55,562 nucleotides of DNA, taken from positions 445,776-501,337 of IMG/VR virus record IMGVR_UViG_3300044712_000732, one strand, 5' to 3'. The translations under genes and the position numbers were made by a program. Source of the stretch: a virus. The notes under the pieces are model-generated. The model was not told where the DNA came from, made no database searches, and saw only the letters and a program-made list of their open reading frames with translations. How positions within the stretch are numbered: the stretch's first letter is position 1; each line of letters opens with the position of its first letter. Positions 28,666-33,285 of the stretch are shown here, piece by piece.

Positions 28666-29585
28666 AAAGAAAAACCACAGAACAATTTATAGAAGATGCT
28701 AAAAAAGTTCACGGTGATAAATATGATTATTCATTAGTTGATTATATAAATGATAGAACAAAAATTAAAATTATATGTCCAGAACATGGTATTTTTGAAC
28801 AATTGCCTAATAGTCATTTACAAGGAATAAATTGTTATTTTTGTGGTCGAAGAAATAGTATTAAAAAAAGATCGAAAACAACAGAACAATTTATAGAAGA
28901 TGCTAAAAAAGTTCACGGTGATAAATATGATTATTCATCAACAATCTATATAAATAAAAGATCAAAATTAAATATTATATGTAAAAAACATGGAATTTTT
29001 GAACAAACTCCACCTACACATTTATCTGGTAATGGTTGTTCAAAATGTTCCCAATGTAAAAAATTAACAACATCTGATTTTATTGAAAAAGCTAAACAAA
29101 TTCACGATAAATATGATTATTCATCAACAACATATATAAATAAAAGAACAAAATTAAAAGTTATTTGTCCTATTCATGGTATATTTGAAATATTACCCAA
29201 TAATTTTTTATACGGTAAGCAAACAGGATGTCCAAAATGTACAGAAAGTAAAGGAGAAAAACAAGTTAGAGAATTATTAGAAAAAAATAATATATTATAC
29301 GTTAAACAAAAATCATTTAAAGATTGTAAAAATAAAAATCCGTTACATTTTGATTTTTATCTACCCAAATATAATTGTTGTATAGAATATGATGGTATAC
29401 AGCATTTTAAACCTGTAAAATATTGGAACGGAATAACATATTTTGATATTCTTAAAAAACGGGATAACATAAAAAATGAATATTGTAAAATCAACAATAT
29501 TCATTTAATTCGAATTAAATATGATGAAAATATCAATGATATTCTCAATCAATTTTTAAATGTGATATCAAATTTTCATCTTTAA
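28662..29585 (+). CDS. putative homing-endonuclease-like protein: three N-terminal ~70-aa Cys-containing repeats plus a C-terminal PD-(D/E)xK (Vsr / I-Bth0305I-like) nuclease domain
   Basis: There are three repeats of TEQFIEDAKKVHGDKYDYS..YIN.R.K..IIC..HGIFEQ.P..HL.G.GC..C. The C-terminus reads ...PLHFDFYLPKYNCCIEYDGIQHF...KKRDNIKNEY (D ... E-x-D ... K pattern). Confidence 0.5.
   Translation: MKRKTTEQFIEDAKKVHGDKYDYSLVDYINDRTKIKIICPEHGIFEQLPNSHLQGINCYFCGRRNSIKKRSKTTEQFIEDAKKVHGDKYDYSSTIYINKRSKLNIICKKHGIFEQTPPTHLSGNGCSKCSQCKKLTTSDFIEKAKQIHDKYDYSSTTYINKRTKLKVICPIHGIFEILPNNFLYGKQTGCPKCTESKGEKQVRELLEKNNILYVKQKSFKDCKNKNPLHFDFYLPKYNCCIEYDGIQHFKPVKYWNGITYFDILKKRDNIKNEYCKINNIHLIRIKYDENINDILNQFLNVISNFHL
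28677..28938. repeat. direct repeat: identical 58-bp copies at 28677-28734 and 28881-28938 (within the three-repeat coding array)
   Basis: acagaacaatttatagaagatgctaaaaaagttcacggtgataaatatgattattcat occurs twice verbatim. A third, more diverged copy lies near 29085. Confidence 0.8.
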
Positions 29586-32500: not shown

Positions 32501-33285
32501 AATGATAAATTATCATAATCTGTTAATTCATCTAAATATAGATTAATAAATGTATGATCATTTTCAATATTTATAAAATTCCATGATACTTTTTTCTTTG
32601 ATTCAATATTCCATATGACACAACCATGGATCAAATCTTCACCAAAATGTTGTTGAATTAACGATGATGAATAAACAATATTTTTTTTAGAACCCAATGC
32701 CTGGTGTTTATGAATATCACCTAAAAGGCTTACATCACCTTTAAAATCATCAATATTTCTATATTTTTTATCTTGAAATATTTTGCCAACATCAGTTAAA
32801 CAACCATTCACTGGATCGTGAAATAAATCAATATATGTTTTTGAATTGTCTATATTATGTGGAATATTAACCCATGGATTAATATTTTTTTCTTGATGTG
32901 AATGATTTACCCACACTATATCATAAATATTATCATTAAAAAATCCAGATTTATTAAAATATGTGACCTTTGGATTATCAATCAACTTAATTACGGTTTC
33001 AATCGAATTAATTCTATTTAAGTTTTTCTTTCTTAAGTCATGATTGCCAAAAACTATAACAACTTCATCTACTAATTTAGATAAATTATTTAAGAATTCA
33101 CCCGCAAGTATTTTTGCTTCGTTACTAATTTCTATATAATTATCAAATAAATCACCAACAATAGCAACAATATTTACATTATTATCTATAATTATTTTAT
33201 ATAATTTTTCAAATTGTATTTTATATTCTCCGTGTCTGTCTATATTTTTTATGTGAATATCAGCGATGTGACAAATTTTTATCAT
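29545..33285 (-). CDS. sbcCD: fused SbcD/Mre11-type nuclease plus SbcC/Rad50-type SMC-like ATPase (single 1246-aa polypeptide)
   Basis: The N-terminus has calcineurin-like phosphoesterase motifs (HIADIH; GDLFD; GNHD; GDIHKH). Around aa 400 is Walker A GLNKEGKTT. A long coiled coil carries a central CPSCG zinc-hook. The C-terminus has the signature SSGMER, Walker B FIVLDE and H-loop IEHNH. Confidence 0.8.
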   Translation of the reverse strand: MIKICHIADIHIKNIDRHGEYKIQFEKLYKIIIDNNVNIVAIVGDLFDNYIEISNEAKILAGEFLNNLSKLVDEVVIVFGNHDLRKKNLNRINSIETVIKLIDNPKVTYFNKSGFFNDNIYDIVWVNHSHQEKNINPWVNIPHNIDNSKTYIDLFHDPVNGCLTDVGKIFQDKKYRNIDDFKGDVSLLGDIHKHQALGSKKNIVYSSSLIQQHFGEDLIHGCVIWNIESKKKVSWNFINIENDHTFINLYLDELTDYDNLSLAINNISLDVEIKIHWKDLSSNINTVNERKIRDYVKSKFNITKITFEKTYIYTDVISSTMLSESLDLTDLKVQTNIFKEYLAEQKYKKEDIDEILKIDEIINGRLHLSDTKTNIEWNIEKFWFTNFKSYGDDNEVDWSDIDGIIQIHGLNKEGKTTILDVITYILYGKTTTTLSPEKFGDNRYINNKRNLDFCEGGAIINANGNKYIIQRRTERQWNRNKTAITACPTTLDLYKDENISDDNKLTGEVKNKTQKELDLILGDLKDFIRLSFTNADNLNDSLSETRSVFMDNIIRDAGYDVFEYKLEEFKEFKKELAEEKLIVDIQESEDQIKNLKTDIDILNENIQSNKNQINEIEIELSTHNSNRDDLNKKLNIIDDTMNSFDESINLKSIENYQIKINDSNFTLTTLTNDINNLPSIFNSEILNGLKIRLKETNDKISERKDEISKIRNLLTESDNKIDKVLSKIKELKDGEIKKHQLKISENDLNIEKIKNKKESIINDEISKIKSDLQKIELEKNDISNKIKLIQKDGSNIKSVNDEYDKDIEKLRNSKACPSCGREYDKTDPKYSEHIAHLEENINQILIKKKDNENKIQNYLAEYKKLKNLLPGFDIKETELNSQKNNLIQGIYSDDIKNKLIEIGNTKFLKDENNILKIIIEEIRNNNFENVITLKENVAKGNQLISNVEKTKDNNLQIIKNIESELKNFNIDSIENDIQLEEQRKEKVELRNKKITQKDNILLSIENFKLKIKELQLEIDKYQEFKSKIEDNKNTQFSIDRINEKILIVKENIKDLNQENIDIEKSILLKENEIDNISTRIRRFLKQKKREELLKEYARCIGRDGIPRFLLKKSIHLINKELSDLLSNVDFTLFFDEELVLRMSMDDRLDVSQNAIESSGMERTFCAIALKMALRQINVKCKSNFIVLDECMGKLISDSIQQFTDFLDNLKTKVNKIVIIEHNHPINFDILIDIVKDENLISHLKID

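Follow-up and report, generated by a model that had tools for sequence, protein, structure and literature searches.

A huge-phage gene that very probably encodes a functional single-chain Mre11-Rad50 nuclease of the Mimivirus R555 type

Fusion of the Mre11 nuclease and the Rad50 ATPase into one polypeptide was described by Yoshida, Claverie and Ogata in 2011 (Virol J 8:427, PMC3175470) for the 1351-residue Mimivirus protein R555, together with twelve further fusions from Bacillus phage 0305phi8-36, Clostridium kluyveri plasmids, a Deferribacter megaplasmid, several algae, a moss and slime moulds. That study reported that Mimivirus and Bacillus phage 0305phi8-36 encode the fused version only and that R555-like genes, probably of phages, are abundant in aquatic viral metagenomes. 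It also pointed out that the Mre11-then-Rad50 order of the fusions fits the T. maritima Mre11-Rad50 (MR) structure, and that 9-12 linker residues would be enough for the native arrangement, given a distance of about 28 Å between the Mre11 C-terminus and the Rad50 N-terminus. In the available part of a jumbo-phage review (PMC7824862), SbcC and SbcD are called practically universal in jumbo phages, with nothing said of fusion, and our literature search for Mre11-Rad50 or SbcCD fusions returned only the 2011 paper and an unrelated paper on an E. coli construct. Here we describe a gene from a 55,562-nucleotide stretch of viral DNA (IMG/VR record IMGVR_UViG_3300044712_000732, positions 445,776 to 501,337; hereafter the window) whose product belongs to the R555-type Mre11/Rad50 family and is very probably a working enzyme. 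An earlier note on this DNA had regarded the two activities as residing on separate polypeptides in bacteria, phages and eukaryotes and a covalent fusion as unusual; neither statement stands, as fusions have been known since 2011, are common in large phages, occur in cultured jumbo phages and fill the protein family phrog_35725, so that the fusion itself is not new.

The gene lies on the minus strand of the window (29545..33285) and, as the note had reported, is a single uninterrupted open reading frame (ORF), with 1246 codons and an ATG start. The window has 21-25% G+C over most of its length; with its base composition, stops are expected at 9.1% of codons on this strand, and a stop-free run of 1246 codons would occur by chance with a probability of about 1e-52. 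We take the start codon to be correct because the N-terminus of the fusion lines up with its homologues from residue 1. The gene and its parts, with the evidence that delimits each, are as follows.

29545..33285, minus strand: whole gene, single-chain Mre11/SbcD-Rad50/SbcC fusion of 1246 amino acids (aa), from the ORF call, phrog_35725 and the lengths of homologues
32596..33285, minus strand: phosphoesterase core, aa 1-230 (approximate), with motifs I-V (D9, H11, G44-D45, G80-N81-H82, H156, D190, H192), from Metallophos, invariant ligands and Foldseek
32341..32595, minus strand: beta-rich capping domain, aa 231-315 (approximate), from the AlphaFold2 (AF2) model and Foldseek
32191..32304, minus strand: helix-loop-helix (HLH), aa 328-365, the presumed Rad50-binding domain, from the AF2 model and Foldseek
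32146..32190, minus strand: linker from the HLH to the first Rad50 strand, aa 366-380, of low confidence, with a conserved W377, from the predicted local distance difference test (pLDDT) and the alignment
31561..32145, minus strand: Rad50 N-terminal ATPase lobe, aa 381-575, Walker A G409-x4-G414-K415-T416, from conservation, the model and hhalign to T4 gp46
30853..31533, minus strand: ascending coiled-coil arm, aa 585-811, from AF2 helices (model residues 207-433)
30799..30852, minus strand: zinc hook C816-P-S-C819, aa 812-829, both Cys invariant, a non-helical apex in the model
29986..30798, minus strand: descending coiled-coil arm, aa 830-1100, with a low-confidence break at about aa 967-988, from AF2 helices (model residues 452-722)
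29545..29985, minus strand: Rad50 C-terminal ATPase lobe, aa 1101-1246, with S1158-G1159-M-E1161, Walker B D1188-E1189 and H-loop H1221, from phmmer, phrog_77 and conservation

AF2 models were made for the two halves separately (aa 1-378 and aa 379-1246), using an alignment of 79 sequences. On the N-terminal side, a profile search for calcineurin-like phosphoesterases, of the kind the note had proposed, places Pfam Metallophos on aa 2-193 above its cutoff (E 2e-9; 38.5 bits against a gathering cutoff of 21.5), and the best NCBIfam match of aa 1-378 is the SbcD model TIGR00619 (E 3.5e-13), with other SbcD and Mre11 models next. Four of the five phosphoesterase motifs that the note had counted are DIH (aa 9-11), GDLFD (44-48), GNHD (80-83) and GDIHKH (189-194), and the fifth, motif IV, which it had left unnamed, is the invariant H156 in LFHDP. 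With the model of this half (pLDDT 88.7; predicted template modelling score 0.80), all 50 of the top 50 Foldseek matches in the PDB were Mre11 or SbcD (template modelling scores, TM, 0.54-0.72), the first of them E. coli SbcD in the SbcCD head complex 7yzo_A (E 5e-13, TM 0.67). Since these alignments, at about 410 columns, span the full-length SbcD chains of the head complexes 7yzo_A and 6s6v_A, the N-terminal half is predicted to include a capping domain and two terminal helices beyond the core. The capping-domain elements of the model are strands at 233-239, 244-251, 270-280 and 305-312 and a helix at 286-300, with pLDDT above 90, and helices 331-344 and 349-365 stand at the place of the Rad50-binding HLH; the linker that follows falls to pLDDT below 50 at aa 371-378. 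Judged by its motifs and predicted structure, the N-terminal part is a two-metal Mre11/SbcD nuclease composed of core, capping domain and HLH.

The C-terminal part contains every element of the Rad50/SbcC module that the note had described as complete: Walker A (GLNKEGKTT) at aa 409-417, the hook (CPSCG) at 816-820, the signature (SSGMER) at 1157-1162, Walker B (VLDE) at 1186-1189 and the H-loop (IIEHN) at 1218-1222. The coiled coil of about 500 residues that it had placed around the hook is likewise found in the model of aa 379-1246 (pLDDT 82.8), as two arms at roughly aa 585-811 and 830-1100. The best PDB match of this model is C. thermophilum Rad50 (7zr1_D, E 1e-20), with assorted SMC-family proteins ranking next. 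At the sequence level, the C-terminal lobe matches M. jannaschii Rad50 (5f3w/3aux, E 4e-5 with phmmer against PDB sequences) and phrog_77 (E 3e-21); the NCBIfam matches of aa 379-1246 are to Rad50, SbcC and SMC models, with PRK01156 aligned end to end (1-843 against 3-868 of 895); an AAA_23 match is on record, precomputed, for the fusion protein; and Pfam SMC_N on aa 379-475 stays below threshold (19.5 against 40). By the model, this part is a Rad50-type bipartite ATP-binding cassette (ABC) head with an antiparallel coiled coil of about 500 residues, carrying a CxxC hook instead of an SMC hinge.

We assessed conservation in an alignment of 29 sequences that reaches down to 20% identity overall and takes in three cultured phages, PTm1, PAU and Mel-JY01, which are 20-25% identical. 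Invariant throughout are D9, G44-D45, G80-N81-H82, H156, H192, G414-K415, C816, C819, S1158-G1159 and D1188-E1189, and nearly so are H11, D190, T416, E1161 and H1221. Invariance or near-invariance of the metal ligands and the ATPase residues over such deep divergence argues for selection on catalysis. The junction between the two halves (HLH, linker, W377 and first Rad50 strand) can be aligned gap-free throughout the huge-phage clade.

The fusion is also lineage-wide, a question that the note had raised. A protein database search gave 329 matches; among the best 120 of these (39-100% identity), almost all are 1183-1251 aa long and cover 100% of the query, and they come from JGI, ENA, Logan and NCBI assemblies, with contigs of up to 501, 531, 617, 640, 678 and 711 kb; a sequence identical to the window protein is on a JGI contig of 501,337 bp. 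The uncultured phage genome LR756501 (735,411 bp) encodes a 1202-aa orthologue (47% identity over the first 561 aa by tblastn). The same single gene is present in the cultured jumbo phages Tenacibaculum PTm1 (gp075; 3957 nt, 1318 aa) and Sphingomonas PAU (gp288; 3906 nt, 1301 aa), and also in Microcystis Mel-JY01 (WWT39521; 3201 nt, 1066 aa) and Chryseobacterium MA9V-1, where these fusions are labelled merely 'metallo-phosphoesterase', 'DNA repair exonuclease' or 'AAA domain containing protein'. The family phrog_35725 is itself full-length, with aa 1-1194 aligned to profile positions 6-1311 of 1376 (E 4.7e-43). A phmmer search with aa 1-620 against 1.84 billion representatives yielded 772 clusters (E<=1e-30); of the 150 that rank highest, most match the nuclease and the Rad50 N-terminal lobe in one stretch, in proteins of about 1000-1260 aa. 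One homologue, P0007 (78% identical), bears the NCBI name 'metallophosphoesterase [Candidatus Dojkabacteria bacterium]'; its source is probably a huge-phage contig binned into the genome of a bacterium of the candidate phyla radiation.

We consider it very likely that the gene encodes a functional single-chain Mre11-Rad50 (SbcD-SbcC) enzyme that processes DNA ends in a huge, very AT-rich phage. By analogy with the solved SbcCD and Mre11-Rad50 complexes, two chains would pair into an M2R2-equivalent assembly through their nuclease domains, their ATP-engaged Rad50 heads and their zinc hooks, with each HLH docked in cis at the coiled-coil root of the same chain. On binding ATP, the assembly would clamp DNA ends or hairpins, and hydrolysis would hand them to the nuclease, which would resect or open them to supply recombination-dependent replication and the repair of breaks in a very large linear genome, in the manner of T4 gp46/gp47. 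In the fusion a peptide bond replaces the operon order 47 to 46, guaranteeing co-expression and co-transfer while leaving the stoichiometry unchanged. The earlier note had stressed that a fusion fixes a 1:1 stoichiometry, a point that adds little because the canonical complex is already M2R2.

Several observations weigh against this interpretation. Our own models cover the halves only, and the pairing, cis docking and ATP clamping sketched above are drawn from the solved complexes. All NCBIfam matches fall under their curated cutoffs (TIGR00619 at 49.9 against 77.65, Mre11 equivalogs far under theirs, and the Rad50/SbcC models at 22-35 bits against 478-1087), so that the halves are divergent relatives of these proteins and not equivalogs. 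In motif V, which reads G-D190-I-H192, the first His is replaced by Asp, the second being the invariant H192. Across the fused family, PTm1, PAU and Mel-JY01 included, the ABC signature is S-G-[M/K/S/A]-E in place of the canonical S-G-G-E/Q, the second Gly having been lost, and the huge-phage clade lacks the D-loop Asp after Walker B (LDE-x-M-G-K-L), while Mel-JY01 keeps LD; to judge from sequence, these changes may alter the regulation of the ATPase. On natural single-chain MR proteins, the literature search turned up neither biochemical nor structural work. Finally, LR756501, the closest complete genome, also has a separate gp46-like Rad50, so the fused protein need not be the sole Rad50-type machine.

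The second ATPase was found by searching the whole of LR756501 (1793 ORFs of at least 70 aa) with hidden Markov models of the three conserved parts and with T4 gp46 and gp47. It is a 566-aa protein encoded on the minus strand at 671002..672702 (21002..22702, minus strand, in the excerpt L027), matching gp46 with E 1.7e-31 and phrog_77 with E 1.2e-71, with Walker A GTNGKGKSS, hook CPFCG, signature LSTGE and Walker B FMDE, and no metallophosphoesterase gene adjoins it. The same 1793 ORFs held no Mre11/gp47-like ORF apart from the fused gene, the remaining motif matches lying in short ORFs (193-262 aa), with a motif I of DxHG type in two of them; the window itself contains no second copy. Huge phages of this group may therefore run two Rad50-type ATPases, and for this reason a minority interpretation keeps some weight: instead of being the core recombination nuclease, the fused protein would be an accessory conflict system (a defence against co-infecting elements, a counter-defence or a weapon that degrades host DNA) akin to nuclease-coupled SMC-like ATPases such as Lamassu LmuB/LmuA or the Rad50-like RloC. 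Its position next to variable DNA and mobile endonuclease genes would suit such a role, as would the Lamassu structures among the fold matches and the annotation of the T4 record, by which gp46/47 also degrades host DNA. PADLOC profiles for LmuB, DndD and PbeC match the N-terminal lobe too, but weakly (best E 6.4e-7, aa 382-538), over the generic P-loop lobe only and with no significant full-length match to LmuB or DndD/PbeC. Moreover, the supposed effector has the full domain set of Mre11/SbcD, capping domain and HLH included, and its top 50 PDB matches are all Mre11/SbcD; the zinc hook and long coiled coil are present; the gene is kept in position and sequence over many huge-phage contigs; and among the 1793 ORFs of LR756501 no Mre11/gp47-like nuclease besides the fused one was found. 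We therefore judge an accessory role to be unlikely.

Somewhat less probable again is that the fold has been kept while the enzyme has weakened, so that the protein would serve as a DNA tether or scaffold, having largely lost its ATPase cycle or its nuclease activity. The lost second Gly of the signature, the D-loop Asp missing from the huge-phage clade and the Asp at motif V could all be read in this way, as could the Gln that replaces the motif I His in PTm1 and PAU. Set against this are the residues on which catalysis would depend, namely D9, H11, D45, N81, H82, H156, H192, the Walker A Lys, the Walker B Asp-Glu and the H-loop His, which are invariant or nearly so. Asp is, moreover, a competent metal ligand. 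The same exchange of Asp for His in motif V has been reported for Mimivirus R555 (PMC3175470).

The last alternative, that the long ORF is an artefact in which sbcD-like and sbcC-like genes were joined by a sequencing or assembly frameshift or a lost stop, draws only on the prior that the two parts are usually separate genes and has a negligible chance of being right, a frameshift or misassembly being excluded by the full-length ORF, of about 1225-1250 aa, in independent assemblies (nearly all of the best 120 of 329 homologues) and in the cultured phages PTm1, PAU and Mel-JY01, to which the single-gene orthologue of LR756501 and the gap-free junction can be added.

Some relatives of this single-chain nuclease-ATPase carry insertions in the nuclease domain. 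The homologue P0103 (1552 aa) has an intein of about 316 aa (PF14890) in motif III, GNH|D, at query aa ~83. In three contigs (L007 1153..5889, L010 2..4675 and L011 953..5686), a gene for an endonuclease-like protein of 293-299 aa lies inside the nuclease domain just after motif V (GDIH-K/L-R...), which splits the host gene at query aa ~197-203 into an N fragment of about 220 aa, bearing an additional conserved tail (..EID..DL..YLK.GW..), and a C fragment of 1040-1055 aa. Among themselves the inserted genes share 45-52% identity, and the genes that they interrupt share 38-52% with the window protein; a DUF7487 match is recorded for the inserted gene of L010 and, weakly, for that of L007. Nothing supports an intron of group I or II where the gene is split: Rfam gave no match in the window and L007 at gathering thresholds, nor in L007 1600..2900 at E<=1, and in L010 there is no room for an intron RNA because the three ORFs overlap.

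The same split point also occurs without an endonuclease gene, in L012 (2046..5775; pieces of 221 aa and 924 aa with an unrelated 96-aa ORF between) and in L013 (3001..5907; a 968-aa C part with no N part nearby), and about 12 of the 150 best representative clusters begin at query aa 196-214. The split may persist in some lineages from which the endonuclease gene has since been lost. In T4-like phages, 'genes in pieces' have been created by free-standing homing endonucleases. The split alleles resemble these, but the break here falls inside the Mre11 fold, and reassembly of the pieces is hypothetical. A more far-reaching proposal, which we put forward tentatively and think rather more likely to be wrong than right, is that the fusions of huge and jumbo phages and of Mimiviridae form one mechanistically distinct MR subclass (with a cis-tethered HLH, an S-G-[M/K]-E signature, no D-loop Asp in the huge-phage clade, and a separate gp46-like Rad50 alongside), and that within it a homing-endonuclease cassette has re-split the gene at a non-canonical site inside the phosphoesterase fold, just after motif V, to give a nuclease that works as 'genes in pieces'. 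Intein-bearing and endonuclease-split alleles alike show that homing elements target the active-site motifs of the nuclease, and they provide a test made by nature of whether two polypeptides can together build an Mre11 fold.

Genes in the neighbourhood of the fusion are listed here.

28662..29585, plus strand: free-standing homing-endonuclease-like gene with three Zn-ribbon repeats (KTTEQFIEDAKKVHGDKYDYS...) and a C-terminal nuclease domain, matching phrog_559 'HNH endonuclease' (E 5e-88)
34813..35883, minus strand: second homing-endonuclease-like gene (DUF7487), from Pfam DUF7487 (E 4e-31) and homing-endonuclease PHROGs
25634..28255, minus strand: Big_9/cadherin-like repeat protein of 873 aa with a type IX secretion system (T9SS) C-terminal sorting domain
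23343..24020, minus strand: isochorismatase-family gene
22413..23258, minus strand: ParB-like gene
21099..22310, minus strand: NAPRTase gene

The earlier note had homing-endonuclease-like genes flanking the fusion on both sides, which is true of the downstream side only. The downstream gene (28662..29585) is convergent with the fusion gene and overlaps its 3' end by 41 nt, although it is not part of the machine, whereas the upstream one (34813..35883) is not adjacent, lying 1.5 kb away with two other ORFs between. Relatives of the downstream gene at the DNA level (66-73% identity) are found in Lak phages, in LR756504 and in many unrelated phages. The upstream gene has weak blastp similarity to the genes inserted in L007, L010 and L011 and is distantly related to that splitting cassette.

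On the downstream side, the isochorismatase-family and NAPRTase genes, which may form a PncA/PncB-like pair for NAD salvage, are kept in both L005 and L006 (a 531-kb contig), and the ParB-like gene is kept in L005 (75% identity); relative to L005, the fusion protein is 79% identical and the isochorismatase-family gene 89%. Two window genes that lie between the fusion and this syntenic block, 28662..29585 and 25634..28255, are absent from both relatives, and blastp of the L005 and L006 ORFs between the fusion and isochorismatase genes found no counterparts in the window. Because it is missing at that position in L005 and L006, the downstream endonuclease-like gene is a genome-specific insertion. 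The T9SS gene (25634..28255), at 40% G+C against about 22% elsewhere in the window, is probably a recent capture from a Bacteroidota host and so a clue to the host, which for this phage probably belongs to the Bacteroidota. The region upstream of the fusion gene is not conserved in relatives.

Scans for other elements added little. Between 29300 and 33800, 44 promoter-like sites were found against 49 expected, together with zero terminators, an uninformative outcome; the 28-36 kb part of the window has just two trivial tandem-repeat arrays; and a tRNA scan of the window found none. Elsewhere in the window are a TnpB-like gene (39568..40782, plus strand; OrfB_IS605, Cas12f1-like TNB and HTH_OrfB_IS605 domains), a ClpB-like chaperone with two AAA modules (15341..17854, minus strand; 837 aa) and a 386-aa protein with S1 RNA-binding domains (8252..9412, minus strand). 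Four large ORFs are without a Pfam match at E<=1e-3: 40774..44979 (minus strand, 1401 aa), 49015..51447 (plus strand, 810 aa), 12714..14513 (minus strand, 599 aa) and 19425..21074 (minus strand, 549 aa). A 244-aa ORF at 35973..36707 (minus strand) has no Pfam or PHROG match; its start, MIFIGLDVSK, resembles the N-terminus of a RuvC-like/IS110-type DEDD enzyme.

The main significance of the locus is that, across a large clade of huge phages whose genomes measure 500-735 kb, the R555-type single-chain Mre11-Rad50 is the standard form, and that the fusion links these phages with giant eukaryotic viruses. Being compact and well conserved, the phage fusions would also be handy one-gene models for cryo-EM and engineering. 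When the model of the N-terminal half was compared by Foldseek with the predicted viral structures of BFVD, the best match was a 1379-aa fusion of Tupanvirus (E 9e-25, 26% identity), and ranks 1-12 were each taken by a fused protein, or a fragment of one, of Mimiviridae, algal giant viruses or jumbo phages. Other top matches were fusions of Harvfovirus (1343 aa), Yasminevirus (1389 aa), Klosneuvirus, Bodo saltans virus, Tetraselmis virus 1 (TetV) and Pyramimonas orientalis virus (PoV), with those of the jumbo phages PTm1, pT24 and PAU ranking among them. Stand-alone phage SbcD proteins ranked lower, at E ~1e-15 and 15-18% identity, the E-values of the fused proteins being about 1e-9-fold lower. 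On this structural comparison of the predicted model, the fusion protein is closer to other fused proteins than to stand-alone Mre11/SbcD.

With Mimivirus R555, compared here by its published description, the window protein shares a single ORF of similar length with an Mre11-like N-terminus and a Rad50-like C-terminus, a long coiled coil, Asp in place of the first motif V His, and a region as large as a capping domain and HLH together, with a short linker leading into Rad50. At about 15 residues (aa 366-380), this linker is somewhat longer than the 9-12 residues estimated in PMC3175470. The two differ in that the third residue of motif II is acidic here (GDLFD/E) and His in R555, and in that the present gene belongs to a tailed huge phage and R555 to a giant eukaryotic virus. 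With the proteins of phrog_35725 (PTm1 gp075, PAU gp288, MA9V-1 and Mel-JY01 WWT39521), the window protein has in common the single-gene architecture, the CxxC hook and an S-G-M-E/Q signature, but identity is just 20-29%; PTm1 and PAU have longer HLH and linker segments and Gln at the motif I His, whereas Mel-JY01 is shorter (1066 aa) and has a canonical D-loop.

E. coli SbcCD and the archaeal and eukaryotic Mre11-Rad50 complexes (6s6v, 7yzo, 3qg5, 5dny, 7zr1) have the same fold in every module, but consist of two polypeptides, keep the canonical SGG signature and D-loop and are only 10-18% identical to the phage protein. In phage T4, gp47 and gp46 likewise come from two genes, with 46.1 and 46.2 between them, and gp46 is a 560-aa protein with a short coiled coil. 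By hhalign, the family profile nevertheless aligns with gp47 on positions 3-259 (E 2e-7) and with gp46 on positions 375-795 (E 5e-7), and the T4 transcription order 47, 46.2, 46.1, 46 is the domain order of the fusion. T4 gp46/gp47 thereby provide the phage precedent for a role in recombination-dependent replication (PMC3175470), the role that we think the single-chain enzyme most likely plays in its huge phage.

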